DNA of 64,000 nt from a virus: positions 36,483 through 100,482 of IMG/VR virus record IMGVR_UViG_3300017971_007885; one strand, given 5' to 3'. How positions within the stretch are numbered: position 1 is the first letter of the stretch; each line of letters opens with the position of its first letter. The translations under genes and the position numbers were made by a program. Below, piece after piece: positions 4,011 to 40,283 of the stretch. The notes beneath the pieces were generated by a model. The model was not told where the DNA came from, searched no databases, and worked only from the letters and a program-made list of their open reading frames with translations.

Positions 4011-4030
4011 GCATCATAGAAAGATTGTCA

Positions 4031-5035
4031 ATGCCTAGAAAAGCAACTAGAATACAAAAAGTCTGTAAAGTTTGCGGTGAACCATTTGAAGTGCTCCCAA
4101 GTAGAGCCAAGAAGCGGTTTTGCTCCAAGTCATGCGCCGCCAAAGTAAACCGCAAGACTAAAAATCCAGTGTTTGTAAAGTGTCAACAATGTGGCGTAGA
4201 ATTCCAGGTGCCACCAAGTAGAAGAGATGCCAAGTTTTGTTCCAAAGAGTGCTATGGAGAATCCAAGAAGGGCATAGTGCCGGATGTAAAAGGCAAGCAT
4301 TGGTGGAATTCGGAGCCGGTCACTTTGGAATGTGAGCAGTGCCACGCACCGTTTCAGGTGCCAGAATCACGGAAAGGCACGGCGCGTTTTTGCACAAAAA
4401 CATGTGCCGATCTTTGGAGAGTAGGCCGGGATAGACCAGAAATGAAGCGCCAGGTCCAGGTAACTTGTGAACAGTGCGGCAAGACATTTTCAATCAATGC
4501 CGCCCAAACAGAACGGCGCTTTTGTTCTCGGGGTTGTCGTGCTCTATGGCTTGGTGAACTGCAAGCGGGCCAGGATCATCCAGGTTACAACAGTGAAGAG
4601 CGGGCTTGTTTGCAGTGCGGGAAGCCGATCCAGGTAACCAAGGGGTACAGAGAAAAGGGATGGGGTCAGTTTTGCAACCGGCAATGCCAGGCGCTCTATC
4701 AAGTGGGAGCCAATAGCCCGGCATGGAAGGGCGGCTTGTCTTTTGAGCCGTATCCCCCCGAGTTTAACGATCGGCTGAAGCGCCCGGTGTGGGCACGGGA
4801 TCGGGGTATTTGCCGGTGTGGATGTGGCCAACCCGGTGCCGATGTGCACCATGTGGACTATGACAAGGAAAACAACAGCTTGGGCAACTTGGTGCTTTTG
4901 GCCAAGTCATGCCACGGCAAAACGAACTTCAACCGGGAGCACTGGACGGCATTTTTCCAGGCCCAACAAGAGGGATTATCAAATGCCATACCCAAACGAG
5001 CACGCCGCAAGGCTCAACAACCCGGACAAGTATAA
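4031..5035 (+). CDS. HNH endonuclease with tandem Zn-ribbon repeats
   Basis: Five CxxCGxxF...FCSxxC-type repeats, then RDRGIC...DVHHVDYDKENN...LLAKSCHGKTN. Confidence 0.85.
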   Translation: MPRKATRIQKVCKVCGEPFEVLPSRAKKRFCSKSCAAKVNRKTKNPVFVKCQQCGVEFQVPPSRRDAKFCSKECYGESKKGIVPDVKGKHWWNSEPVTLECEQCHAPFQVPESRKGTARFCTKTCADLWRVGRDRPEMKRQVQVTCEQCGKTFSINAAQTERRFCSRGCRALWLGELQAGQDHPGYNSEERACLQCGKPIQVTKGYREKGWGQFCNRQCQALYQVGANSPAWKGGLSFEPYPPEFNDRLKRPVWARDRGICRCGCGQPGADVHHVDYDKENNSLGNLVLLAKSCHGKTNFNREHWTAFFQAQQEGLSNAIPKRARRKAQQPGQV

Positions 5036-5285
5036 GCGAGTGCGCCGGGTCAATAACAAATTTGGTCCAGGGATCCATGCCATCTTTGGCTTTACGGGTT
5101 CAAAGCAGGACGGCGGTGGTGAACTGCAAGCAATCCGCTTTGATCGCTCCAAGTATACACCCAAACAGGCACGGAAGTGGCTCAAAGAGCACGATTACAA
5201 GGCTATGCTGGAAGAGGCCACAAAACCAAAGGCCGCTCCGGTCAAGAAGAGCGCATGGTTTATGGGTTGGCACGTAACCCGATAG
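4983..5285 (+). CDS. Head-associated small protein (MPYPNEHAARL domain)
   Basis: MPYPNEHAARL...ELQAIRF...ARKWLKEH domain, commonly fused to phage prohead proteases. Confidence 0.6.
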   Translation: MPYPNEHAARLNNPDKYKRVRRVNNKFGPGIHAIFGFTGSKQDGGGELQAIRFDRSKYTPKQARKWLKEHDYKAMLEEATKPKAAPVKKSAWFMGWHVTR

Positions 5286-5295
5286 GGGATTATCA

Positions 5296-7347: not shown

Positions 7348-9087
7348 ATGAGCTTATCACTGACAGGGATGCAAGGTCTTCATGGCCTCATAGGTAGAGT
7401 GCGGTGGTTGTTGCGGGATGACTTTTGCGACACGAGAGCGGCCGGCGCTGTCGATGGCACCCCGGCCACGCCTGGACCTGGAACGAGAACGGTGGTTGAC
7501 ACGGGCAATCACATGTCTGTGAATGGAGATTTTTTGACCACAGATGGGTCCGTTGCAACAGGAGATCCACGATGCTACTACAATGTTGTGTTTACTAGAC
7601 AGGCCGGTCTAGTAGCTCTTTGTGATATTGAAACGAATTCACGGATCTATTTTGGATTTGATAGTGGCGTCGGGGCAGAGCCAGATCTAGCCGCCTTGTC
7701 GTTTAACGGAACGCCTCTTTTTGCTTGGGATGGTGGAGTGGCACGCCAGGTTGGAACCATAGTTCTTGGTGCAAAGTATAAACTGGGCATTGTGTTGCGC
7801 ACATCAGGGCTGTACTGTTTCATCAAAGGACAAGCATTCACACATTGGACACTATTGTGGTTCAGTGCCGCAAATAATACAGCAAATTTGTATCTAGGGG
7901 CTTGTGGACGAACAGGCACACTGGATAGTGATTTTATCCGTGTCCCAGACGCCCTATGGCTCCCAAACCCGCTTGCCCATGACTCTTTCACTCGTGCCAA
8001 CGGGCCGCTAGGATCAACGGAAGATACAGGGCCAGATGGACAACCGTCAACGATCAGGGTGTGGCAGTTGGGTGGGGCGACATGGGCCGTGAGTGCAAAT
8101 GAAGCCGTCAACACGCCAACGTTGGGATCGGAAGAATTGACCAACGGTAACTTTACAGCCTGGACCGGGGATGATCCGGATAATTGGTCCGTTTTACTTG
8201 AGGATGTGAACAACTATGTCACCGAAAATCCGGCCAACAACGCACAAGTTGTGTCGGACGGATCAGCAGGTGTCAATCTCCGGCAGTCTTGCATGGGCGA
8301 AGGGTGGTTTCGCATTCAAGCGGTCGTTTCTGCACATGCCGTTGGCGGGCTTAAAATCTACAACACTGATGGGGAATGGATTTTTCAAAGCGGAAAACCC
8401 AATGCGGTTGGAACGTGGGAGAGTAGCCAATACAACAGCGGTGTAGGAATGTCGCTCATCGTCCAGGCGGCGGCGGCCTGTGATATCACGCTTGATAGTG
8501 TCAGCGTGAAACGGCTGACCACAAAAGAGCTATTCTCAGCCGTGCAAGTAGCAACGGCAGATGTACTTGCCAGTGTCGAGATTGACGCAATGCCAGTTTC
8601 AGGAACTGAATATGCCCAGGCCGGCCTTATGCTCAACCTTGACGATCCGGACAACCCGCAAAACTATGTGTTAGTCCTTATGGATACAGCACCGTTGTCA
8701 CTCGGATTTGTGCGAATTCACAAGTGGGTAGCCGGGGTGAGGACGAATGTTGCAAACACAAGTGTTGCTTATGTACCCGGCGCAACGCTTGTAGCCGTTA
8801 AGGATGGCACATCCTATTCAGTGTACTATAACAACTCGCTCGTAGGAACGACACAGACCATTGCTGATGCCGGGATTATCAATAACACGTTACACGGCAT
8901 GTTCAGCACGCACGAAGACAACCAGTTAGACAACTTTCAGGTGTTCGCTCGTGGAACAGGTAACGAGTACAACCGGCTGGATGCGTGGTCATTTGACGGC
9001 AATTGTGCTGCCTGTGTTTGACTGCTTTTAATGGAATCAGGCGATTTCCTACTACTCGAAAGCGGGGACAAGATTTTATTGGAGTAA
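7348..9087 (+). CDS. Virion carbohydrate-binding/decoration protein; UGA at 9019-9021 probably recoded (candidate Sec), extending the ORF from 9021 to 9087
   Basis: Beta-rich CBM/lectin-like modules; after ...NCAACV-TGA the frame continues LLLMESGDFLLLESGDKILLE* and ends 4 nt before the next ATG. Confidence 0.65.
9033..9049 (+). promoter_or_regulatory. Bacterial SECIS-like hairpin
   Basis: GGAATC-AGGC-GAT(T)TCC, 11 nt after UGA; same spacing and length as the E. coli fdhF minimal SECIS. Confidence 0.55.
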
Positions 9088-9091
9088 AACG

Positions 9092-11263
9092 ATGCCCGAC
9101 ACAAAGATATCAAATTTGACACCGTTGGCTACCGCCGTTAAAGGTGACGTGCTCCCGATCGTCAACGGGGGCGCAACCAAAAAGATCACGGTTGAAGACT
9201 TGTTGCGTTACGAGAACGTGATCACGGTTGCCAAAAGCGGGCCGGCGGACTATACAACTATTGAAGCGGCTCTTGCTGTAGCGGCGGCTCGTGATGTGAT
9301 CATGGTTGCGCCGGGTATCTATTCTGAAAACAACCCTTTGACCGTGCCCGATCAGGTCACGATCATGGCACTCGGGGAGCAGAACACAACCCGGATAGAA
9401 GCAGCCAATGCCAACCAGGATCTGTTCACGAGTGCTAACTTTTTTATCGTCACGGGCTTTTCTATTGCCGATGTAGCTGGAACTGGTTGGATCATTGACG
9501 TAAACGCCGCCGATGCCGTGATTTTTGAGGACTGTGTTGTCTATGAGTGTGAGCAGGGATTCAGAACGTCTCACGTGTCCGCCACGCTGACCTTGGGCAA
9601 TATATTCTTTTTGACCTTGGGCGTTACCAAGACCGATCCGTGCGTTCGGAACAACGCCGGAAACATCACCGTTGCCGGTGGGCGTATTGGCGTAGGCTCT
9701 TTGATCGGTTGCGTTTTCAATGTGGACGGCGCAAATGCGATCACCACCGTGCTTCACTTTCTGACATTTGAAACCACCGTTGACTATGTTGTGGTAGCTG
9801 ACAACGGGGCACGCTCTGTTTTTACCGGGTGTTCGTTTGTGGGAATGAACGATGCGGCTTCTTTGGCCGGTGGAAGCGATACGCGATTTGTCGCCACGTC
9901 TGTCTTTTTGGCCGGGAATGATGCGATCCGAATTGAAAACAGCGGAGCCAACACAAACTTTGTAGGCCAAGGGATCACGGTTGAGTCAACGACTCGCTAC
10001 GATCTCAACATTTTGAGTGCAACGGGTACAGTATCGGGGTTTGGACAGTCTGCGCTTGATCAGATGAACTTTGTTACGGGAGCGCAGTTTACAGCCAGCT
10101 TTGTGGACTTGAAAGAGGACGACGAAGGGCTGAATGTCGTTGGGGAACTTCACGTTGGCATACCGGAACTTGGCGCAGAATCGGTTATGGGCCAGGGCGA
10201 TAGTTACACACGTGGTATGCTTGTCTACACTTATAATCCAGCCGGGCCGGTGTGGGCTGATGTTAGTGTCGCCGCCCGATCTGCTTCCGGGTCCACATTC
10301 ACATTTCCGGCAGTGGCGGCAAATAACGCGATCTATGTTGCTTCCAGCTTGGCGGATGCTTCGGACTATTTGCACCACGATGGAATCAAGGCCAGCATTA
10401 CAACCGCCGCCGTTTTGGGTGGTGGGTCGATCGTGGTCGAATACTGGAACGGGGCGGCCTGGGTGCCCATTGATCACATGTCCACGCTATCAAATGCCCC
10501 CTATACTCAGTATGGAAAGAATATCTTTGAGCGGACAGGCTCCGAACAAATCCGCTATCCGTTGGCCTTTGTATCGTCTTGGACCAAAAACGATCCAGTG
10601 ACGCCGGCCATTGGCACAAATTACTTTTGGATGCGTTTCCGGGTTGTAGGCGGGATTACCACGGCACCGATCTTTGAGCAATTCAAGCTACACACCGATC
10701 GCTTTGAGGTTAACGCTGATGGCGTCACGGAGTATTTTGGCCATGCCCGCTATCCGCAAGATTTGAGACTAGACTATCGGGAACTAAGCGGCTTTTCTCC
10801 AGGCAATCAGAATGTTGCTTATGGAACCGGGGTCACGTTTGTTTATATCAATAACAAGTTTGTAGATGGCAAAAAGGACGGATTTGGTGTTTACGTGACC
10901 ATTCCGACAGGTATCGACACAAGTTTGCCACTCCGCTTTGCCTGGAACTGGTATGCAGACACGGCCAATGCCGGGGATGTGGAATTTACTGTAGAAGATA
11001 TACAGCTTGAGGTAGGTGATCTGATAGATGGCACGGCCGGCACCACAACTTATACCACGGTTGAGACTGTCGGGGCTGGAACCAGATACGTTTTCCGCCA
11101 GTCTTACCTTGACCTGGATATCTCGGATTTGGTGCCTGGGGAAGCCGTGGCCATCGCTCTTTATCGTGATGCAACAGCACCCAATGATCCGCCTGATACA
11201 CTAAACGGTGATGTTGTGATCTTTGGTGATATCCGGGCGATCGGTTACTTTTGGCGGCCATGA
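9092..11263 (+). CDS. Beta-helix (pectin lyase/pectinesterase-like) virion fibre or spike
   Basis: MPDTKISNL N-terminus; ITVAKSGPADYTTIEAAL...VAPGIYSE beta-helix cap. Confidence 0.7.
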   Translation: MPDTKISNLTPLATAVKGDVLPIVNGGATKKITVEDLLRYENVITVAKSGPADYTTIEAALAVAAARDVIMVAPGIYSENNPLTVPDQVTIMALGEQNTTRIEAANANQDLFTSANFFIVTGFSIADVAGTGWIIDVNAADAVIFEDCVVYECEQGFRTSHVSATLTLGNIFFLTLGVTKTDPCVRNNAGNITVAGGRIGVGSLIGCVFNVDGANAITTVLHFLTFETTVDYVVVADNGARSVFTGCSFVGMNDAASLAGGSDTRFVATSVFLAGNDAIRIENSGANTNFVGQGITVESTTRYDLNILSATGTVSGFGQSALDQMNFVTGAQFTASFVDLKEDDEGLNVVGELHVGIPELGAESVMGQGDSYTRGMLVYTYNPAGPVWADVSVAARSASGSTFTFPAVAANNAIYVASSLADASDYLHHDGIKASITTAAVLGGGSIVVEYWNGAAWVPIDHMSTLSNAPYTQYGKNIFERTGSEQIRYPLAFVSSWTKNDPVTPAIGTNYFWMRFRVVGGITTAPIFEQFKLHTDRFEVNADGVTEYFGHARYPQDLRLDYRELSGFSPGNQNVAYGTGVTFVYINNKFVDGKKDGFGVYVTIPTGIDTSLPLRFAWNWYADTANAGDVEFTVEDIQLEVGDLIDGTAGTTTYTTVETVGAGTRYVFRQSYLDLDISDLVPGEAVAIALYRDATAPNDPPDTLNGDVVIFGDIRAIGYFWRP

Positions 11264-23184: not shown

Positions 23185-26100
23185 AATGCGCAAACTTGGG
23201 CTAAAAGTGGCGCTTGCCGGGCTCCAGTCCTACCGATCCGGCATTCAGTCTATCAACAAAGACAACGCCGCAACCAGGCAATCAATGGAAGACGTGGCCC
23301 AAGGGAGCCAAAAACTAGACTTGGGCATGGCCGCCTTGACCGGCGGAATGCAAGCCCTTGCCGCAAAGGGGATCGAAGTGCTTCTTGGCGGACTGAAGAG
23401 GTTGGGCAAAGAGATCTATGGCATGGCCTCAGAAGCCGGTGTGGTGGCCGGGCTAAAAGGAGCCTTTGAAGGACTGTCCGCTTCTGTGGGCCTAACCGGT
23501 GCAGAAATGCTACAAAAGTTCAGGGTGGCCACGGGTGGCATGGTGACCATGAAAGATGCTATGATGAGTTTTAACAAGGCCGCCCAGTTGATTAGCACTG
23601 ATTTTGCCACAATGATCCCCGATGCTATGGGGCACCTATCCAAGGTGTCTCGGTCAACCGGGGCCAGTCTGGACTATTTGCTTGACTCCTTGGTGATCGG
23701 TATTGGCCGCCTATCTCCTATGATCCTGGACAACTTGAGTATCCAGGTGTCCCTTGCCGAAGCCTCACAACGAGCCGCCGACATGTTTGGCGTGAACACC
23801 AAGGCATTATCAAAACAGCAAAAGCAATTGGGCATGGCCAATATCGTTATGGAAAAGTTGGCCATCAATACGGCGCATATGCCAGGCGTAACCGGCACAA
23901 CCACGGCACAAATGGCTGCATTGGGTACAACCTTGAAAGACGTGCGAACAGAGATCGGCCTTCGCTTTTTGCCGGTGTTGAGCGAATGGATGGGCATTGC
24001 CAACGCTCTAGCCACTGAGTTTATGCCAAAACTCATTCCAGCGGCTGAAAAGGTATCTAATGCAGTCATGGGAATGATGACTTGGTTTCAAAAGTTGGTT
24101 CCTGTACAGAAAATTGTGGCCGGTTTATCTGAAGCTTTTGATGCTTTCGTGACCGGGATGCAAACGGCGCTTGCTCCGGCTCTAGAAGTCTGGGGGAACT
24201 GGACCGGGATTATCAAAGCTTACATTGAAAGCATCGTCAATATTTTGACCGGTGGTGGACTGGGGAAGGTGTTTGAAGAACTGCCAGGCAAGATCGAAGC
24301 CGCTTTTGCGGTGATCGGGCCAATAATTGAAGAGGTAACCAAGTACCTGACTTATTTCTTCAGAGTGGCCAGAGATGTTTTTGCAGGAGTTGAAGCCCTT
24401 TTGAAGGGGGACACAGAGCGGGCAACCAAATTTTTTACAAAAGCCTTCAACACAGCCATAGCCACGGTGATCGCCCTATTCAAGCGGCTTGGTGCTCAAG
24501 TGATCGAGTGGGGCAAAAGTCTGATTGCATCCTACAGTAAAGGGATCATTGAAGGGATCAAAGCCTATCTATCCGCCGCTCTTCAATCTGTAGCCAACTT
24601 TATCAAATCATTTATGGCTCCAGGGAGCCCGCCCAAGTTTTTGCCGGATATTGGCACGTGGGGTGCCGGGGCAATGAATGAGTACATCAAGGGCATGGAG
24701 CATGCCGATTTTGGTATGCTGTCTAGTTTTACATCCCAATTCAAAACCGAACTTTCAGGCTTGATCCAGGCCGGTGATTTGGATGCTTCTGCTTTTGCAG
24801 ATACGTTTTTTGAGCTACGTGGCACCGTCATGAAGGTCATGGATGACTTCAAAAAAACCGGCAAGGTTGCAGCGGGGGCATTGGATCCGTTACGCAAAAA
24901 CTTGGGCAAGACCGGGGAAGCTTTGGCTGAATTGATCGAGAAACAACTTGCCTTTTCCGCTCTGGATAAGCAGATCGAAGAGCTAGAAAAAGGCTTCAGT
25001 GAAGCAATGGATGGAATCAGCAAAAAGTTCGAGGGCTTGACGGATCAAGAAGAAGCCTTGAATGATGCCTTGATGCCTTTTATCAAAAACCTGGAAAAGC
25101 TACGCGCTCAAGAAGTCGTTGAACTTGACGAATTGAGAGAGATGTTAGACGCCGGAGAAATTGGGCTTGAAGAGTACGAAGATCGGGTCAAGGCTGTAAA
25201 AGATCAAACCAGGGAAGCCGAAAAAGCCTATAATGTGAAGCGAGCAGAGCAGGTAAAATCACGCCAAAATATTCAGGAGCAAAAAGAGGCACTTCAGGAC
25301 CAGGCCAAAACGCTTCAAGATGAACGGCGAGAGAAACTAAAAGCTCTTGCTGAAGAAAGAAAAGCTTTGGCTGAAGGGATCACGGCGCTTCAGGACCGGC
25401 TTGCGTTCCACCGTGAAACGTTGGGCGTGATGAAACAACAAGACCAATTGTTAAAAAAGATGGCTGAAAGGATGCCCAAGGTTGGCGTGGGGGCCGGCCC
25501 TAAAGTGGACGGCATGCCAGCTTTACCAAAGGTTGAAGATTTGCTTGGTGAAGACATGCCCACCGTGCTTGAATCTGTTGACGACTTTAGGAAACGGATG
25601 GAAGATCTAGGTAGTCTTGAGATCGAACCGTTTGATCTCGGGGAACTTTTGCCCGATGTGGAAACAACAAAACGTGAAGTTTCCGCTTGGTTCTCTGCAT
25701 CTTTGGCCGGCATACAAACGGCGGCACAAAATTCGCCTATTGCTCAATGGATCCTGGATGCATTTTTCGTAAAACTCCCTGAAGTAATAAAGGGAATTAG
25801 CACGTGGATGGAAAGCAATTTTCCTATGGCCTTTTATATGGTACCAAAAATCTTGGAAGAAGTTTTCTCTGGAGATTTTCAAGGTGCCTTGCAATTGGCT
25901 ATTGATTGGTTCGAGTGGTTCAAAAGCTATATTGCTATCTGGTGGGCAATGGAGATTGAGCCTAAACTGAAACCATTCAAAGAGTGGTGGGAAAAAACTT
26001 GGCCGATCTTGCAAGCGATTGCAGTCACGGCATGGAAAGTGATCAGTGATGTTGTCTCGGCGGCGGTGAAAGTGATCGTGGATGATGTTTGGCCAAAACT

Positions 26101-27239: not shown

Positions 27240-30200
27240 ATGCCGTCAAACCCATATTCCGGAATGCCAAAGATGTGCTTGCTGTGCACAACTGCCCCCA
27301 ACGGTAGGCCGATCGATCTTTTGAATGCTCGTGGCATTTGTATCACAAATCCGCCAGGCTGGACGCCGCAAATTACAACGTTGAAAGGTGGTGGGGTCCG
27401 GGTCGGATCGCAAACATTGGATGATGATTGGCTCGTGGCCGGTGCGTATGGAGCGGTAGGGGAAGCTTTTCCGGTCAGAATCAACGCGGCGGATACCGCT
27501 GCAAGGGTACAAGAACTCTTGATGCGATTGCAAGAGGCTGCACAGTATTGGATCGATGGCTGGCAACGTGATGCCGTCTATTTGAAGGTACAGCTAACCG
27601 AAGATCATGGCGTTAAGTACAGCCGGATCAAAACAGGATCATACCGGATCGGCAATTATGCTTTTGGGGACCGGACAGGATTACCAAACAATGTATTGGT
27701 GCTAGAACGTGAACCATACTGGAACGGCGCTCCGCCCAACGAGATGCTTGGACCGTTTGCAAATTGGTGCCCCAACCCTTCATTTGAGTATTGGTCAGAC
27801 GATGGTATTGTGGATGCGTTCCCAACAGGTTGGTATGGTTGGCTGGATAGCGGTTTATTGCCCCCCACTTTAGAACTTCGGAGAGAAGATCAACAGATCG
27901 CCGGACCGGACTATGCTCTAGATATAAATTTCGCCGCCGCTCTTGGTGCCGGGGACTATCGGCTAACCGGTAGAATGAATTGGCCAGGTTCTCCAGAACA
28001 AGCAACGTTGCGCTTTTGGCTGTTCCTGACCTTGACAGCCGCCACACATACATTCAGCGTGCGAGTGATCAATAACAAAACCGGTGCGGCGGTTGCAACG
28101 GCCTCTTTTACATCAGATTATCAAGGCTACTATTATTTGCCGGTAGATGCGCCATTTATTGACGATGGAACATACTCGGTAGAATTGCGGTGGCAATTCG
28201 TCAATTCTTTTGTTCCATCCAGATCGGTGATCGACCACATTTGTTTCACGCCGGGCATATACGATGAAGACAGTTGGCCAAGTGAAAGCTTTTATCTGAC
28301 CTGCTCCAATATATGGAATTGGGAAGATGACGAGATGCACTATGGGCACAAGCGGGGCGTTGGAGAAGATGTCCAGCATCCTATCAACTTCCTTGATGTA
28401 TCCGGTGTACCTGGATCGGCTCCGGCGATCATGGAACTTAACGTCTCGCATCTTGGTGCCAAATATGGCGATGACAAGAACTATCCGATTATCAATTACG
28501 TGATGGGATCTCAGGTCCACGAAGCCGGGAAACGATCTAAAGATGAGTACCACATTTCGATGAATGGCGATGGGCCAGGATACACAGGCACAACAGAAAA
28601 GAATTTTTCTTCAGAGAGTTACATCAATGCTAGGCTGACAACAACATATAGTGCGATCTATTGTTGGCGTGCCGATGCGTTGGCGGAAACGTCTTTGTAT
28701 ACGGGCCGTTTCAAGGTTTTTGGCAGAATGCGATGGGTACCCACGGCGGAAGGAGTGTCAACGACATTACAGCTAGAACACTGGATCGGTAGCCAGGTGG
28801 GCCTTTTACAACAAGATGAAGTAATACTTGAGCCATCCGATCAATACAGAATGGTCAATCTTACACCCCGCTCTGTCGTTGACTGGAGTATTCAAGCCGA
28901 TACGCCGGCCGCTCTCGGGCTACGCCTTAACGGGAAAACAGAAGAAGAGGCTGGCAATATCGTGGTTGATTTTCTTCTGTTTGTTCCAACAGATGCAGGT
29001 ATGACAACGATCACGTTTGACGAAAATACGCCATGGTTGGTCGGTCAAGCTATTTCGATAGACGGTAACCCCAACCATCAACCAATTTCTGTTACATCCC
29101 CGTTTTTCCCTTGGGTTCGAGAATCAAGCATGTTGCTTGTAGCCGAAGGGCTAGATAGTTGGCTATGCACAGATGCTGAAGCTTTCACTGGTTCACTTTA
29201 TGTATCTACATACAATGTGGACGTGACCTATGATTATCAAATTTGGATCCCGATCAAGTGGCGTAGCACATTCGCCGCAACCAAGTACCCCGTTGACATT
29301 GTAAACAACGGGTGGGACACGGCCACGCTCATCGGTGCGGCTAAGATGTTAGCCAGCGGGAATGATTTGCGTGTCTTTGACAACGGGGTAGAAATAGATC
29401 GTTGGCTCCAGGATATAAATACTGCAACAACTCAGGTTTGGGCAAATCTGGACTTTGATCCCAAGGGGGAAGCGGCTCTTGCTACAGCCATAGCGGCCGG
29501 CGGGTTCGTGTCAACGATAACGGTCAGCAACCCAACCACTGATTTTCCGAACTCGGGGATCCTGCTTATTGACTCTGAAGCATTTGAATACACATCAAAA
29601 AATGATACCACAATGACCTTTGGTGGTGTCACTAGAGCGATCCGGGGCACAACTTCAGCATTGCACAATGTTGGAGCCGCCGTCTGGTGGATACAACATG
29701 ATTTGTGGATCAAGTATGGCAATGCCGCCGCCGCTGCTCCAACTGTAGACGACGATTATAAACCGGCCTTTCGCCTTGACTCAACAAATGTATCATGGGA
29801 TTACGACGACTTCGGCGAAGATGACGAATTGCGTGCCGCTCAATGGTTCTATGAAGCTCCGCTTCCAGGATACACGTACCCGTGCACCAAGTATACGGCC
29901 AACCATGGCGGTACAGCCGATCCTTGGCAGGAAATGGGGATAACATGGGATGCCGATGCCACTGCATCCGGACGATGGTGGCTCTACAACCCATGTGGTA
30001 TCTCTTCAGTGAATTATCAAAACGGAGAACACTATAGAACGTTGGCGATCCCAACGGAACAACTCACATCTAGCATGACAGGGGTTGAGCCGTGGACTCT
30101 AGAATACACCATTCCAACCCCCGGTGCCGGTGCTTGGGTAGCATGGAGCCGAAACGAAACCATGACGGCAAACACCAAGTATGTAGGTATAGAAGTTTAT

Positions 30201-34708: not shown

Positions 34709-35994
34709 ATGTAAGAGCGTTACTAAGTCAATCTTATTCCAACCGCACATTGTCCAATATCCAGGAAACGATCAACAAGGCCAAGACCATGGGCGCTAGT
34801 GCTATCTGGGTGAACGTTCACGAGGGCGGGGCGCATTACAATAGCGCGTACTTTGGCAGATGCAGCAAAATAGAAGCCGGACTTGATCCGTTGGGGAAAA
34901 TGATCGAATTGGCCCATGCTGAAGAGATCGAGGTTTACCCATGGTTGACGCCAGGATATGACATTTATCAAGTCGATCCAAGCACCCGCATTTGGCTTTC
35001 CGATGTGCAACGGTCATGGACCTATTTTGCATTGCCGGCCGCAAAGACAGCACAGCAAGCATTGTTGGATGACATTGCCGGGAAATATGCGATAGATGGC
35101 TTTTTGCTTGATTACATCCGATATCCAAAGACGCAAGATTCTCGGGCAAACAAAGATGATGTGAGCGCCATTGTAGAAGCATCGTATGCAAAAGCCCAAA
35201 CGCTGGATCTGCCATTGTACGCCACGGTGGCCAGCAATGTACCCGACAACGGGCGTTACATGTATCAACATTGGGATGAGTGGCTTGATGGTGAATACAT
35301 CGATCTTGTGTTCCCGATGATCTATTATGATGTGCACGATGCGTTCAAATTGTCATGGGATACCGGCAAATGGCCGCATGATGACATTGCCAGAATTGGC
35401 ATCTGTCTTGCTCCGGTCAATGTCCAAACGGACTATTCGCCAAAACCAAAGTGGTATATGGGCGATGAGATGGAGATCGTCCGTTCGCTTGGCTCACAAC
35501 ATTTTGCAGTATTTGATAGCCGCCTCATGACCTACGATCATGCAGACAAGATTTCCCGCATGACGATGGGCCGCACAAACCAACTCCGGGCCGTGTCGTT
35601 CCACCATGGATACCGGGAAACGGCGATCGTGGTTGAGAAGGACAACGAATCCACTCTACTCAGGTATGAAACCGATCCTTGGGGCGCATGGCAGGGCATT
35701 GCTAACAAAACGGATGAGCAGGTACAGGCAATGCTTCCGATCGGGGTTTGGTGCCACAAGCACAATGATGGTGTGTGGTCGCTTCACATCAGTGACGATG
35801 AGCCAACATGGGAGGACGTTACGCACCCACAGGACGGTGAAGAGATCCAGGCCACGGCAGACACGCCAGATTTGCCCGATCCCGGACCACAACCGGACTG
35901 GGAAACACTGCGAAAGCTGGAACATGAAAGTGCCGATCTACTTGAGCAGTTGGCGCAAAATCGACGCGATATTGCTGAAGAATACAACGTGTAG
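34705..35994 (+). CDS. GHL10/DUF187 glycoside hydrolase, candidate endolysin
   Basis: DPLGKMIELAH...IEVYPW...IDGFLLDYIRYP...WDEWL...PMIY (DigH/YddW-type family). Confidence 0.75.
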   Translation: MNVRALLSQSYSNRTLSNIQETINKAKTMGASAIWVNVHEGGAHYNSAYFGRCSKIEAGLDPLGKMIELAHAEEIEVYPWLTPGYDIYQVDPSTRIWLSDVQRSWTYFALPAAKTAQQALLDDIAGKYAIDGFLLDYIRYPKTQDSRANKDDVSAIVEASYAKAQTLDLPLYATVASNVPDNGRYMYQHWDEWLDGEYIDLVFPMIYYDVHDAFKLSWDTGKWPHDDIARIGICLAPVNVQTDYSPKPKWYMGDEMEIVRSLGSQHFAVFDSRLMTYDHADKISRMTMGRTNQLRAVSFHHGYRETAIVVEKDNESTLLRYETDPWGAWQGIANKTDEQVQAMLPIGVWCHKHNDGVWSLHISDDEPTWEDVTHPQDGEEIQATADTPDLPDPGPQPDWETLRKLEHESADLLEQLAQNRRDIAEEYNV

Positions 35995-36003
35995 AGTATT
36001 ATC

Positions 36004-36498
36004 ATGCCTTTTTCAGAGATCAAGATACTAATTGCAGAAGACGATCTAGCATTGGCCAATCTGTGGGAACGGATTTGTACCGAAATAGGTTTTCAGGTCA
36101 CTAAAGCCATAACCGTTCGAGAAGCACTTGAACACGTGGGTACGGCTCACATTTTATTGGCCGATCTGATGCTTGCCGATGGACGTGCGGATTTGCTGAT
36201 TTCTAATTGGGTTGAGCACAATGGCGGCCCGCTTGTTTGCGTTTCTGGTGTTTTGTCTGAATCCGAGATCTGGGATTTCATCTTGCAGGGAGCATATAAT
36301 GCTTTTGCAAAAACCGATTTTACAAATGAGATGGTACGGACCTTGGTCGTGCGATATGCAAAGTGGGTCATGCTGAAGGTGAGGCTAGATGCACTAGAAA
36401 ACCAAATTAAGCTACAACGTTATGCGATCGGCGGATTGACGGCTTTGGTCTTGGGAAAAGAGCTATGGAGTTTTATAGCCCCCCTGTTCTTTCCATAA
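36004..36498 (+). CDS. Receiver (REC) domain protein with coiled coil and C-terminal hydrophobic segment
   Basis: ILIAEDD, LLADLML (phospho-Asp), VSG, FAK. Confidence 0.75.
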   Translation: MPFSEIKILIAEDDLALANLWERICTEIGFQVTKAITVREALEHVGTAHILLADLMLADGRADLLISNWVEHNGGPLVCVSGVLSESEIWDFILQGAYNAFAKTDFTNEMVRTLVVRYAKWVMLKVRLDALENQIKLQRYAIGGLTALVLGKELWSFIAPLFFP

Positions 36499-36513
36499 AA
36501 AGGTATCAGACAA

Positions 36514-36542
36514 GAGGCGATCTTTTAGATCGTCTTTTTTTG
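36514..36542 (+). terminator. Late-operon terminator
   Basis: GAGGCGATC-TTTTA-GATCGTCTT followed by a T-run. Confidence 0.7.
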
Positions 36543-36565
36543 TGCGTACGTGGTGACACAAGATG

Positions 36566-36594
36566 TTGACAGGTCGTGTCATCTGTGATAGAAT
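36566..36594 (+). promoter_or_regulatory. Near-consensus sigma70 promoter for the FtsK operon
   Basis: TTGACA-N17-TAGAAT; TGACAC/GTGTCA inverted half-sites overlap it. Confidence 0.8.
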
Positions 36595-36610
36595 GGTTAC
36601 AGGAGAAAAC

Positions 36611-36949
36611 ATGCCAGGAAAACAGGTCAGAATTGACGCAAATTTGCTTGCCAAGCTTCAGTGTGAAGCGGATCGTCACAACCTAACTATCAGTAAGTAT
36701 ATCGAACAACTAATCAAAGAATCGCAAGCATACAAAAGCCTTTTGATTGACGTGGGTTTTGACTTGCGGCCAGATCAAGGCCGCTTGGTGGGCCTATCAA
36801 TGGAAGCGTGGGCACGATTGAACAGCTTTCGAGCAGATTACATCAAAGCGCAACCCACATGTACAGGAGATATTAGCAGTGTAGTGTTGCATCTACTAGA
36901 AGGGGCCGATCATGAATCAGATCGGAGCGTGGCTAAATGCCCTGTATAG
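36611..36949 (+). CDS. Ribbon-helix-helix-like regulator
   Basis: KQVRIDANLLAKLQCEADRHNLTISKYIEQLI; SD AGGAG. Confidence 0.6.
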   Translation: MPGKQVRIDANLLAKLQCEADRHNLTISKYIEQLIKESQAYKSLLIDVGFDLRPDQGRLVGLSMEAWARLNSFRADYIKAQPTCTGDISSVVLHLLEGADHESDRSVAKCPV

Positions 36950-38204
36950 GGTATTGACGCTAGAGAAGGGTATCTTTTTCAATCTCGTAGGACGACAGCG
37001 GGGACTTCGGACCTACCTCATGCAGATTCACCTACCAAACACGGCAGATTTGCCCAAGGTGCTCAAGGCGCATGAATCTTTGGCCATGGCCATGGGTGTG
37101 GAGCATGTCCGGGTAGCTAGAAACAAGGCGCTTGTTGACATAGATGTGCCGCTTCCAGAGGATTCATGGCGCTCTGTGAAATTGAGCCAGATATTATCAA
37201 GCCAGGCGGAGCGGCTAACTCTTGGACACGATAGCGGCGGCCAGGTGGCCACGATAAGCCTACAGTCACCACTTTGCGCCAACGTTCTTTTTGCCGGAAT
37301 GCCAGGCAGTGGCAAGACTTTTTCAATGATTAGCCTGGTGTTCCAATGTGCCGTGATGTACGATCCACAGGATCTTCAGATCATCTTGATCGATCTGAAG
37401 AACGACAGGGCATGGAAACCGCTTCATATGTTGCCCCACTTGGCACATCCGCCCGTGAAGACTGAGCAGGAAGCCCGCCAGGTTCTGGAGTGGGTCCGGG
37501 ATCAACGGCTGGAGCGGATCCACTACAATGGCCAAAAACAGTTTCCACGGCTCCTTGTGGTGATCGATGAGATAGCTTCCTTGATCATGCGTGCCGGAAA
37601 GGAAGGTGCCCTTGCCAAGTTGATCGGTGAAAGCACCGGACAGGGCCGGGCACTGGGGATCAATCTATTTTTGGGCACTCAACAGCCCAACCAGAAAACC
37701 ATGGGAGCCTTCACTAATGCAGATATGCACGTGCGGATCGTGGGCCGGGTAACCAGTGCGGACTATGCCGCTCACGCTACAGGCCGCCCCCAAACTGGAG
37801 CGGAACACCTTTGTGGTAAAGGGGATATGTTGGCCTTCTTTGGAAACGAAATTCGGCATATCACAACACTGTACTTGGATCGGGACTCTCTGAAGCAATT
37901 GCCCAAGAAGATCGAACCCGAACCGCTTTTGCTTCCAGCTTTTACGGCAGATGCGCCGGAGCCAGGTGGCCGGGATACGGCAAAGATTTACAGCCCAGAA
38001 GTGATCAAAAAGACGGCATTGGCACTTTACTGGTTTTTTAAGTGGGGCAAACGGCCAACGGCCAATTCCCTACAATCAGAGTGCAAAGGTTCCATGACCA
38101 ATAGCCGGATCGCCAGAAATACGGCGCTTGACATTATCAAGCAATGGCCGGAGCCGGCTGAAGTCTTTGTGCGGAATCTTATGCAGGAAGGTAAAGCAAC
38201 ATGA
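36912..38204 (+). CDS. FtsK/SpoIIIE/TraB-family ATPase
   Basis: Walker A GMPGSGKT, LIDLK, Walker B VVIDE, GRALGINLFLGTQQP, GAEHLCGKGDML. Confidence 0.9.
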   Translation: MNQIGAWLNALYRVLTLEKGIFFNLVGRQRGLRTYLMQIHLPNTADLPKVLKAHESLAMAMGVEHVRVARNKALVDIDVPLPEDSWRSVKLSQILSSQAERLTLGHDSGGQVATISLQSPLCANVLFAGMPGSGKTFSMISLVFQCAVMYDPQDLQIILIDLKNDRAWKPLHMLPHLAHPPVKTEQEARQVLEWVRDQRLERIHYNGQKQFPRLLVVIDEIASLIMRAGKEGALAKLIGESTGQGRALGINLFLGTQQPNQKTMGAFTNADMHVRIVGRVTSADYAAHATGRPQTGAEHLCGKGDMLAFFGNEIRHITTLYLDRDSLKQLPKKIEPEPLLLPAFTADAPEPGGRDTAKIYSPEVIKKTALALYWFFKWGKRPTANSLQSECKGSMTNSRIARNTALDIIKQWPEPAEVFVRNLMQEGKAT

Positions 38205-38647
38205 AGAAATTGCGCTTTTTTGGCATTGTCCTATCACTTGCCTTGATCGGTGGATGCGTGGCGCTTGGGGGAGTTGTCGGCTTCGAGATCGTGAATAATC
38301 CCGAGATGCGCATGCTCTTGAAAGTGTTCGCTTACTTGGTGGTGGCTTTGGCCTTGATCGGGGCCGTGTGTGTGTTCCTCATGGGCGTGATCTTGGTCAT
38401 CGGCAAGGGCTTGGGGTTGAGCCAGGGGGATACAAAAGCGGCGCTCCAGGCGGCGATCGCCTTGGCCAGAAGTTCAAACACGATCAACAAGCTTTATGGA
38501 CGGCTCCCCCGTGGACTCTTGCCGCCAGGTCAAGCCCCGCCCAATTATTATCAATGGCCAGTGAGCACCATGGGTGATGGCCCGATCGATGGCCATGCCA
38601 CTCATGCCAACACAGAACGGGCCAATGCTGAAGCTTGGGAGCGGTAA
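38201..38647 (+). CDS. Two-TM membrane protein
   Basis: Two hydrophobic helices; ATGA-coupled to the FtsK gene. Confidence 0.7.
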   Translation: MKKLRFFGIVLSLALIGGCVALGGVVGFEIVNNPEMRMLLKVFAYLVVALALIGAVCVFLMGVILVIGKGLGLSQGDTKAALQAAIALARSSNTINKLYGRLPRGLLPPGQAPPNYYQWPVSTMGDGPIDGHATHANTERANAEAWER

Positions 38648-38649
38648 CC

Positions 38650-38859
38650 ATGGATGTTTGGGTAGGCCATGCAGGAAAGAAACAATGGACCATCCAAAGC
38701 CTGGAAGATCCGCCCCAAGTACCCGAATTATGGCAAAAGGTCACGATCCGTTTTTACCTTGACCACAAAGAGAAGCCTATACCGGGTTATGTGAGCCGGA
38801 TCATTGACCATGAATGGTTTGTGGTCCGGGCCGGGAAACGACAAAGGCCCACCCTTTGA
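38650..38859 (+). CDS. Hypothetical protein
   Basis: Last ORF before the terminator. Confidence 0.5.
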   Translation: MDVWVGHAGKKQWTIQSLEDPPQVPELWQKVTIRFYLDHKEKPIPGYVSRIIDHEWFVVRAGKRQRPTL

Positions 38860-38873
38860 CAGGTGGGCCTTTT
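38843..38873. terminator. Bidirectional terminator between convergent operons
   Basis: AAAGGCCCACC-CTTTGACA-GGTGGGCCTTTT. Confidence 0.8.
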
Positions 38874-38894
38874 GGCTGAAATGATGAGGTATTA

Positions 38895-40283
38895 TCAATC
38901 CGCCGTCAATAGCACTTGCCCGTGCCAAACCATGTTAGGCTCTTCCTCACTCGACAGATGCCCGATCCCATCCTGGAGCAGATCCCACGCATTTTCCAAC
39001 TCTTCCATTGCATTGGTCAAAGCTTGACTTCTGTGCTTTTCCGGGATGCATTCCAGGGCCGCCAGAGCCGCCTTGATCGCCCCTTGATCGTCTTCCAGTT
39101 GAGCCAGGGCCGGACATTTGTTTGTGCTCCGGCGCAAGTGATCCACAACGTGCATCGTAATGACTTCCCGCCCCACAGGCAGATCGATACTTGTGGCTTC
39201 TGCTCTTACGTAGCAATCCACTGTAACAGATGCCCAGTCATGACCACGGGTTTTTAGATGCACCCGGTCCGACCTAAAAGAGCCATCCCGGTATCCATCA
39301 AAATCGGCTTCCAGCTTTTTCAATAGCGCCAGGCGCTTGATCCCTCTACGCTTGGTTGTTTCATACACGATCACGCATTTGGGATATTGCTCCAGGTACT
39401 GGGGCAAAAAGCGGCGCTTTATATCCTTGAGCACCTTGGCCGGTGGACGCCCGAGAGTAAAACCCATGGTAGGGATATCACGATCGTTGGGCGTGAAGGA
39501 ATAGCCGCCCCGGTGGAATTCATCAATCAGATGAGGCCAATTTCCGGACACTTTGGCCTTCGGATCATTGTTGTTGATCCAAAGGTGGATGCCATAACCG
39601 TCCGTGTGCATAATATCGCAGGATCGCCACTTGGGATTCCCTTCATAGCTCCAATCACTGCCCATCAAGTGCGCAATGTGTTGGCCGGTCCAGTGCACGG
39701 CTTGGATATTATCACTCGGGCACGGGCCAAGATCCAATTCTTTGGGCTCTGGATCGACCGGGGCGGCTTCCGCCGCCTCTTGTTTTTCTGGGTACTCTGT
39801 CATAGCTTCCAGCACTTCAGTGAACCAACGGTGTAAAGGCTCTCGGGAACTCAGATCCAGAACAAAAGAGTAATCACCATCATAGCCCTGGATGGCCGGA
39901 GCGTCCCAACCATACTTCTTTTTTCCAGCTATGGCCGCCGCCTCAATTAGGGCTTTTGAATGCTTCCGGATTAGAGAAGGCCGTGATCCAAAGCATACTT
40001 CTTCCGCACCTTCAGGCACTGGGATTTCTTTTTGCGCAAAAACCACCGAACCATCCGCCAGAATCCAAGAATGCGCATACTCGGTACGCTCATATTGGCC
40101 ATCATAGTGTTTTCCCTCAAAGGGTGCCAATAGTTTCTTGACTTGGGCCTTGCTTGGACCATCCGCCCAGACAATCCGCACCCCGCTTTTGCTTATCACT
40201 GAAAACTTGGTGCCGGGATAATTGGCCTTCAAAAGCTTCCGGACCATCTTTGCTGTCTCAACTGTCGAAATGTGCCTTGCCAT
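38895..40283 (-). CDS. LPD29-domain protein
   Basis: TAKMVRKLLKANYPGTKFSV...WADGP...FEGKHYDG. Confidence 0.7.
   Translation of the reverse strand: MARHISTVETAKMVRKLLKANYPGTKFSVISKSGVRIVWADGPSKAQVKKLLAPFEGKHYDGQYERTEYAHSWILADGSVVFAQKEIPVPEGAEEVCFGSRPSLIRKHSKALIEAAAIAGKKKYGWDAPAIQGYDGDYSFVLDLSSREPLHRWFTEVLEAMTEYPEKQEAAEAAPVDPEPKELDLGPCPSDNIQAVHWTGQHIAHLMGSDWSYEGNPKWRSCDIMHTDGYGIHLWINNNDPKAKVSGNWPHLIDEFHRGGYSFTPNDRDIPTMGFTLGRPPAKVLKDIKRRFLPQYLEQYPKCVIVYETTKRRGIKRLALLKKLEADFDGYRDGSFRSDRVHLKTRGHDWASVTVDCYVRAEATSIDLPVGREVITMHVVDHLRRSTNKCPALAQLEDDQGAIKAALAALECIPEKHRSQALTNAMEELENAWDLLQDGIGHLSSEEEPNMVWHGQVLLTAD

Follow-up and report, generated by a model that had tools for sequence, protein, structure and literature searches.

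A candidate split FtsK-type translocase module in a tailed phage whose genome carries a strongly polar octamer

Introduction

The best described counterparts of the locus reported here are the bacterial DNA translocases FtsK and SpoIIIE, which combine an α+β RecA-type motor, with its Walker A and B motifs, with a small helical C-terminal domain (γ) on a flexible linker, and which work on replicons that carry a strongly polar octamer, the FtsK orienting polar sequences (KOPS; GGGNAGGG) or the SpoIIIE recognition sequences (SRS; GAGAAGGG). We have analyzed a 64,000 nt stretch of viral DNA (hereafter "the window"), which corresponds to positions 36483-100482 of the single, 100,482 bp virus record IMGVR_UViG_3300017971_007885, and in which a short operon at window positions 36566-38873 encodes an FtsK-type ATPase with the same motor and a small helical C-terminal domain on a flexible linker. 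Furthermore, the genome around it is studded with a strongly polar octamer, ATTATCAA. Unlike FtsK and SpoIIIE, the phage protein has neither the N-terminal domain of four transmembrane (TM) segments nor the long linker, and its C-terminal domain is not detectably homologous to γ and lacks the wing of γ in the structural model. The phage word also differs from KOPS and SRS in being A+T-rich, far denser, 100% polar, and evenly spaced, and it is not known to have a dif/Xer context.

A second point of reference is TraB of the Streptomyces conjugative plasmids, which is served by TraB recognition sequences (TRS) at the clt locus, controlled by a kil-kor repressor, and accompanied by the Spd membrane proteins. 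The phage locus resembles it in the FtsK-like motor with a C-terminal domain (which is DNA-reading in TraB), in what is probably a dedicated small repressor, and in an adjacent small membrane protein. However, TRS are clustered in clt beside traB, whereas the phage word is dispersed genome-wide without any cluster at the operon, and the element studied here is not a plasmid but a tailed phage with a large terminase subunit (TerL). A further FtsK-like DNA-transfer ATPase, TcpA of pCW3, carries its own N-terminal TM helices.

Phages themselves provide two comparisons. The phage proteins of phrog_1358 (for example, gp203 of Mycobacterium phage Omega and the proteins of Bacillus phages Moonbeam, Eldridge, and Goe3) are likewise short, soluble, and from large tailed phages, and are 24-29% identical to the present protein over the motor; in contrast to it, they have no such C-terminal domain, and there is no dispersed polar octamer at their loci. 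We found no literature that assigns a function to short phage FtsK-like proteins, only mentions in genome announcements. The second comparison concerns the word. In the Chi-rich phages LLS and MD8, an octamer occurs far above chance in one active orientation, at ~20 sites per genome (2.5 times the density of 1 per 4.6 kb in Escherichia coli), clustered near one end (Genome Research 2025, PMC12315714). Its reader is RecBCD, with no link to FtsK, and, in contrast to these phages, the exact word studied here occurs about once per 1 kb, evenly across at least 100 kb. The present genome pairs an extreme case of a polar word with an extreme case of an FtsK-like gene, which comes with a foldable candidate reader domain of ~75 residues.

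Results and discussion

The FtsK operon is an autonomous, moron-like transcription unit

The original prediction, made from the letters of the sequence, had described positions 36566-38873 as a self-contained operon with its own near-consensus promoter and terminator, a ribbon-helix-helix (RHH)-like regulator, an FtsK ATPase, and a coupled membrane protein, and had proposed that the ATPase reads the polar word. All of the features claimed for this region were found where they had been placed (Table 1). The locus forms a conserved unit of autonomous, moron-like build: it has its own promoter, which matches the consensus at 11 of 12 positions, is enclosed by hairpins on both sides (z about -4), and lies between the late plus-strand block and a convergent minus-strand block. 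The promoter is the top promoter-like site within 35900-39200, and the hairpin at the right border faces the end of a convergent minus-strand gene (38895-40283). The unit holds four genes, however, and not three, the 69-aa gene at its end having been absent from the earlier description; its product has no family match in Pfam, PADLOC, or NCBIfam. For the first gene we preferred the 112-aa open reading frame (ORF) from 36611 over a listed 128-aa ORF (start 36563), which begins within the promoter. The final 38 nt of the first gene overlap the start of ftsK.

Table 1. Coordinates of the operon, the word copies within and beside it, and other features of the genome
Feature	Coordinates	Strand	Details
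Intrinsic terminator of the preceding GHL10/receiver-domain genes, left border	36504-36545	+	Hairpin + U7, -18.3 kcal/mol, z -4.06
Sigma-70-type promoter	36566-36594	+	TTGACA-17-TAGAAT, extended -10 TG; 11/12 matches
Gene for 112-aa RHH-like small protein	36611-36949	+	AGGAGA ribosome site and ATG at 36611
Gene for 430-aa soluble FtsK/SpoIIIE-type ATPase	36912-38204	+	PF01580, phrog_1358
Gene for 148-aa two-TM membrane protein	38201-38647	+	ATG overlaps the ftsK stop as ATGA (38201-38204)
Gene for 69-aa soluble protein, last in unit	38650-38859	+	ATG 3 nt past the previous stop
Terminator hairpin	38843-38872		11-bp G+C stem, then UUUUGG; -20.4 kcal/mol, z -3.98
ATTATCAA copy inside ftsK	37193-37200	+	Spelled by the minor codons ATA-TTA-TCA; the word recurs at 38133, 38547, 38891
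Block of ~2.7 kb without counterpart in L001	34181-36610		175-aa gene, GHL10 hydrolase-like gene, receiver-domain protein, new promoter and first gene
HNH endonuclease	3983-5035		phrog_1271, E 4e-37
ParB-like partition protein	record 4249-5292		Upstream of window
641-aa DNA methyltransferase	record 8498-10423		Upstream of window
Radical-SAM protein	record 24767-25738		Upstream of window
PAPS-reductase-like protein	record 28406-29449		Upstream of window

The ATPase is predicted to be a soluble FtsK-type DNA motor

The product of the second gene matches FtsK_SpoIIIE (PF01580) in Pfam with an E-value of 5.5e-19 (68.9 bits; Pfam cut-off, 24) and phrog_1358 in PHROGs with an E-value of 5e-32. Both Walker motifs are intact (Walker A, GMPGSGKT, at residue 129; Walker B, VVIDE, at residue 216). 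An AlphaFold2 model, built from 18 sequences and with a mean predicted local distance difference test score (pLDDT) of 84, shows an α+β motor from residue 1 to ~335, a disordered linker (residues 340-357), and a C-terminal domain at residues 362-425 (nt 37995-38186). When this model was searched with Foldseek, the best matches were 6t8o, 2ius, and 2iut (E 1e-23 to 2e-24, TM-score 0.63-0.72, ~368 columns), which are the αβ motors of E. coli and Pseudomonas aeruginosa FtsK, so that the α domain is represented. TcpA (E ~1e-16), EccC/EssC (1e-12 and weaker), and HerA came behind; the TcpA structure of pCW3 (PDB 6o1w, E 2e-16) was the second-best structural match, but a much weaker one than FtsK (TM-score 0.48, root-mean-square deviation [rmsd] 8). 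A profile alignment to full-length FtsKs with hhalign gave a probability of 99.8% over query residues 23-388.

The claim that the ATPase has no N-terminal TM segment was likewise borne out. There is no TM segment anywhere in the 430 residues: the top 19-residue hydropathy is 1.35, and no window reaches 1.6. The protein begins directly with the α domain, in place of the four-TM membrane domain of its cellular counterparts. Viral FtsK-like loci as a rule encode soluble proteins of 350-530 aa. By these sequence and structural matches, the ATPase is a true FtsK-type double-stranded DNA motor that lost, or never had, a membrane domain.

An ATPase of this family could also act elsewhere than on phage DNA, in host takeover, in defence or counter-defence, or, together with the membrane protein, in secretion of the EssC/EccC type. 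In PADLOC the protein does match SspH (E 1.6e-22) and mad8 from MADS, in each case through their FtsK-like domains, NCBIfam returns EccCa and EssC at E-values similar to those for FtsK, PHROGs classes phage FtsK-like proteins as moron/host takeover, and the unit is built like a moron. Nevertheless, matches to true FtsK motors, α domain included, are better than those to EccC/EssC or HerA by at least 10 orders of magnitude, and the Pfam, PADLOC, and NCBIfam searches turned up no further secretion or defence component next to the unit. We therefore regard a role away from phage DNA as very unlikely.

A lineage-specific domain lies at the position of FtsK γ

The original prediction had also pointed to a small helical domain at the C-terminus (the peptide TANSLQSECKGSMTNSRIAR, residues 383-402 of FtsK) and had likened it loosely to the γ domain. 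In the AlphaFold2 model, residues 362-378, 384-391, 395-411, and 413-425 form four helices (pLDDT ~85), and the same four helices were obtained when the domain was modelled alone (pLDDT 82). The domain is kept in all six homologues, and S398, R399, and R402 of helix 3 are invariant. Thus, a small domain, predicted to have four helices, on a flexible linker at the γ position was confirmed, but its identification as a γ-type winged helix-turn-helix (HTH) was not: in the model the fourth helix occupies the place of the β wing of γ and there is no wing, and neither Pfam nor PDB nor profile comparison matches it to γ. Specifically, a phmmer search of 1.8 billion cluster representatives returned only the domain's own cluster, there was nothing in Pfam at an E-value of 10 (γ, PF09397, included), no PDB sequence matched at an E-value of 10, and a feature-based Atlas search gave no usable match. 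When aligned alone with γ-bearing FtsKs, the domain scored a probability of 0.13% in hhalign; because of this value, the run-on of the full-length alignment into helices 1-2 of γ was not counted as homology.

Structural comparison points only weakly to a DNA-binding fold of a more general kind. In an exhaustive structural alignment, the top matches were nearly all HTH or winged-helix DNA-binding domains (CapW, MarR, CadC/ArsR/SmtB, BrxR, PadR, and GntR), with Z of 4.4-5.8, although with helical models Z values below 8 are often obtained by chance. The γ domain of P. aeruginosa FtsK (2j5o) ranked only 47th with Foldseek (E 6.2, TM-score 0.42-0.44, rmsd 2.7, 48 columns). From the model, an HTH-like DNA-binding domain at the γ position is plausible, and most likely it would target or orient the motor on DNA.

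The genes on either side of ftsK

Residues 5-42 of the first protein gave five matches to RHH-type families in Pfam (RHH_1, MatP_C, HicB, CopG_antitoxin, and DUF6364; E 0.056-0.13), that to RHH_1 having an E-value of 0.066 and 13.6 bits against a cut-off of 20.5. A small gene is present where the regulator had been claimed, and RHH is a reasonable but weak label for its product, all five matches being under threshold. The 112-aa protein is probably an autorepressor.

The third gene is translationally coupled to ftsK through the ATGA overlap, and hydropathy places two hydrophobic segments in its product, roughly residues 6-30 and 38-68, ahead of a soluble tail of ~80 aa, as expected from the description of a coupled two-TM protein. 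The protein could not be assigned to any family of Pfam, PHROGs, PADLOC, or NCBIfam. Gene coupling and conserved adjacency suggest that it is a membrane anchor or partner of the motor. The possibility that it is a lipoprotein (IGGC, residues 16-19) was dropped because the cysteine lies midway along the first hydrophobic segment.

A conserved three-gene core with a probably exchangeable regulator

The FtsK has five close homologues (P0002-P0006), at 69-90% identity (69-77% for P0003-P0006), and the remaining matches are at most 33% identical. The only close homologue that could be reached as DNA is on a 39,974 bp IMG/VR contig, L001. A scan of metagenome contigs for further relatives returned L001 alone, as it did with P0005 as the query, and a scan of genome contigs returned only distant cellular FtsKs. 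In L001 the unit has the same order: a strong terminator, a promoter, a 74-aa protein, FtsK, the two-TM protein, a small protein, and a hairpin. FtsK (90%), the two-TM protein (91%), and the 69-aa protein (86%) are highly similar to those of the window. The first protein, however, is only 29% identical, and the promoter, although at the same place, differs (TTGCAA-17-TATAAT). The regulator and promoter therefore look like an exchangeable cassette ahead of a conserved three-gene core, and a swapped first gene and promoter fit a cognate repressor/operator cassette.

In L001 the unit lies directly behind the tail genes, without the block of ~2.7 kb that precedes it in the window (Table 1). This block contains no exact copy of ATTATCAA, only family variants at 34964 and 35998, which suggests that it is a recent insertion to which the adaptation to the word lattice described below has not yet extended. 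By contrast, the word occurs in the FtsK unit at lattice spacing (37193, 38133, 38547, and 38891), unlike in the adjacent insertion, and the unit is therefore a long-standing resident of the genome.

A proposed repressor-controlled split FtsK module

From these features we propose that the locus is a repressor-controlled, split FtsK-type translocase module with a lineage-specific HTH-like C-terminal domain, tethered to the membrane via the two-TM protein, a reading that we consider evenly balanced between right and wrong. The unit would be driven by a host-type promoter, closed by the terminators on both sides, and controlled by a small, exchangeable RHH-like repressor, by the same logic that the kil/kor system applies to TraB of Streptomyces plasmids. 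Its main product would be a hexameric FtsK-type double-stranded DNA translocase. The two-TM protein, with its tail of ~80 residues, might supply the membrane tether, so that membrane anchor and motor would form an FtsK split over two genes, and the flexible linker would hold the four-helix, HTH-like domain at the γ position, where it could target or orient the motor on DNA.

Several observations weigh against this proposal. The RHH assignment of the first protein falls under every Pfam threshold, and the counterpart of this protein in L001 has no Pfam match at all. Contact between FtsK and the two-TM protein is deduced from gene coupling and conservation, and, because the operon adjoins a GHL10 gene in lysis position, the latter could instead have nothing to do with the motor and be, for instance, a holin-like membrane protein. 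ATPase domains of the FtsK-like kind are also known from defence proteins (SspH, MADS) and from type VII secretion. Finally, the best Foldseek match of the C-terminal domain in PDB has an E-value of only 2.4, and its fold matches from the exhaustive alignment lie in the chance range noted above.

The octamer is one-oriented and evenly spaced

There are 61 copies of ATTATCAA in the window, all on the plus strand, where 2.5 are expected. In the whole record, the count is 93:0 by strand, as against ~1.2 expected per strand, and the word is the commonest octamer of the genome. Together with its variants (TTTATCAA, ATTATCAT, and ATTTTCAA) it forms a family, DTTWTCAW, with 179 sites on the plus strand of the record and 2 on the minus strand (window sites 85-63913); on average, the exact word occurs about once in 1 kb and the family about once in 0.56 kb. 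Polarity is independent of gene direction, and in the minus-strand block the word lies mostly between ribosome site and ATG. An IHF-like reading of the word, as WATCAA-N4-TTR, was rejected, there being no downstream TT signal.

Family sites are evenly spaced, at ~395 bp. The distances between nearest neighbours peak at 300-520 bp, are nearly absent at 560-720 bp, and have a second peak at 700-850 bp, while distances over all pairs have maxima near 400, 790, 1200, and 1580 bp. Such evenness was not matched in any of 5000 random placements, and the related contigs L001, L005, and L008 are spaced alike. The word is also maintained at a cost in codon preference: TTA makes up 8.6% of leucine codons, and 29 of the 192 TTA codons in plus-strand genes (15%) fall within the word. 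At ~80% DNA identity, about 70% of the sites are conserved, and new sites arise in relatives. In related contigs, the strand counts of ATTATCAA are 33:0, 13:0, 7:0, and 22:0.

Around the operon, sites of the word (36975, 37193, 37319, 38133, 38547, and 38891) have ordinary lattice spacing and form no array. The copy at 38133-38140 supplies the codons for the conserved I-I-K in helix 3 of the FtsK C-terminal domain (D-I-I-K-Q-W), which is probably a coincidence.

A more distant relative, L090 (IMGVR_UViG_3300005098_000067; 63.6 kb, 58% complete, 60% G+C), whose TerL is 55% identical, also carries the word, at 8:3 against ~0.25 expected per strand. Most of these copies are antisense to terL, and several lie between ribosome site and ATG. 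The copies in L090 imply that the word predates the dense lattice and that it has no set orientation with respect to terL.

Does FtsK read the word?

The idea behind the original prediction was that the C-terminal domain is a γ-like reader of ATTATCAA/DTTWTCAW, such that the motor loads one way and pumps the genome one-directionally, as in the pairs KOPS/FtsK, SRS/SpoIIIE, and TRS/TraB. There is a good deal to recommend it. The order of motor, flexible linker, and small HTH-like domain is that of FtsK; the word has the length of KOPS and SRS, eight nucleotides, and is completely one-oriented in the genome and in the four related contigs counted above; it is kept despite codon preference and conserved at most sites; both the C-terminal domain and the word are restricted to this phage group; and, FtsK genes being uncommon in phages, the presence of one together with such a word is a mild coincidence. 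Nevertheless, the absence of sequence or profile similarity to γ and the fourth helix in place of the wing speak against it, as does the even ~395 bp spacing, which is foreign to KOPS and SRS. Moreover, many other words in this genome are equally one-oriented (see below). Even spacing and a multitude of one-orientation words are not predicted by the logic of KOPS.

Comparison with other viruses did not help this idea. We screened 80 other viral FtsK loci for polar 7- and 8-mers, and none of the 80 showed a dispersed polar octamer, the high scorers being clustered repeats or codon-driven words. Co-occurrence of this FtsK with the word among relatives had been suggested as a check. Every close relative does carry the word, but the close relatives are fragments, FtsK was seen only in the one that spans the syntenic place, and the check is thus uninformative. 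Relatives that lack FtsK and keep the word had been named as grounds for abandoning the idea. L090 keeps the word and has no FtsK in its 63.6 kb, but these represent only 58% of a genome. In sum, no test supported the FtsK C-terminus as the reader of ATTATCAA, and we consider this claim doubtful. The γ-like reader as such is unlikely in our estimate, and its full form, in which a membrane-tethered split FtsK, which would be the first viral counterpart of KOPS/FtsK, reads DTTWTCAW through its HTH-like domain and moves the genome in one direction along a ~395 bp lattice, is likewise improbable. The original prediction had further speculated that the phage pumps its genome across septa or between cells of a filamentous host, or segregates as an episome; none of the observations made here bears on these ideas.

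Alternatively, the FtsK unit may have nothing to do with the word, whose reader would then be a host recombination nuclease (Chi-type), a priming enzyme, or a phage nickase. As candidate functions, a Chi-type word would protect rolling-circle tails, a priming word would mark lagging-strand starts, and a nickase would give one-strand nicks like those of T5. Phages saturated with Chi sites in one active orientation have been documented (PMC12315714). The even spacing would suit a ruler-like use such as fragment priming; however, no primase, replicative helicase, or polymerase was recognized among the proteins scanned. A nickase finds a possible counterpart in the HNH endonuclease gene of the window. 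The persistence of the word in L090, where FtsK was not detected in the 58% of the genome available, is in keeping with a reader other than FtsK. Against a Chi-type word, Chi logic leaves the depletion of TGATAA on the plus strand (2 copies against ~21 expected) unexplained. We give a reader other than FtsK a little under an even chance. Chi-like and priming-like readers are equally good candidates for the word, which is better treated as a separate genome signal, possibly with a reader of one of these two kinds.

If the link between FtsK and the word is true, it would show that a virus pumps DNA under the direction of sequence, and it would account for a genome-wide signal of a new kind. If it is false, the operon is still a clean, split, repressor-controlled FtsK module, and the word needs a Chi-like, priming, or nicking explanation.

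In the course of the screen, we observed three viral FtsK-like genes that are flanked by clustered 7-8-mers in one orientation (L048, 24-3319; L087, 1342-12044; L022, 134-991). These clusters share TTCTG (CCTTCTGC, TTCTGAAT, and GTTCTGCG), and are clt-like arrays rather than genome-wide words.

Other one-orientation words

Apart from the octamer, the record contains GCCAGG (163:0), GCCAGA (67:0), GGGTC (77:0), CAGGTG (65:0), GGGGCC (50:0), GAACTG (41:0), and GGAGG (18:0) in one orientation. As many other words are as one-oriented as the octamer, no single cause accounts for strand polarity in this genome. Cross-correlation of GCCAGR, GGGTC, CAGGTG, GGGGCC, GAACTG, and GATC with ATTATCAA was flat, without periodicity. 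About twenty 6-bp palindromes are missing, and GGTCTC, GAGGAG, CAGCTC, and further asymmetric sites occur in neither orientation. There is an about threefold excess of GATC and a strong shortage of CGCG and TTAA. No N:0 words were found in the cyanophage Mvi-JY20. This Microcystis phage had been considered as a relative, but with a TerL identity of 24% it was too distant and served as a control only. The pattern resembles a massive restriction-site avoidance that extends to the sites of orientation-dependent enzymes, by analogy with phage T7, whose EcoP15I sites lie in one orientation.

Genome context

The virus is a tailed phage, as is evident from TerL and the long tail genes in the record. 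Genes of the window run on the plus strand to 38.9 kb, on the minus strand in a block to 49.8 kb, and on the plus strand again thereafter. A megablast search among 50,697 deposited phages returned no DNA-level relatives. HIP1 is not enriched (3 copies), that is, the genome is without this cyanobacterial signature. Genes for a topoisomerase, a ParB-like protein, and an HNH endonuclease were also recognized in the record, as was a gene cluster of the DNA-modification type. The HNH, ParB-like, methyltransferase, radical-SAM, and PAPS-reductase-like genes (Table 1) could together constitute a DNA modification/nicking toolkit relevant to the polar words.

The record starts inside a gene (record 1-240), whose frame, read by eye from the first bases, encodes an LSGGE-like ATPase signature, and ends (100460-100482) just past the start of another. 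Proteins identical to this FtsK and TerL are also encoded on a contig of 109,791 bp. Because of these truncated-gene ends and the identical proteins on the longer contig, the record is probably ~9 kb short of the full genome. DNA of the phage is present in both sediment and seawater metagenomes.

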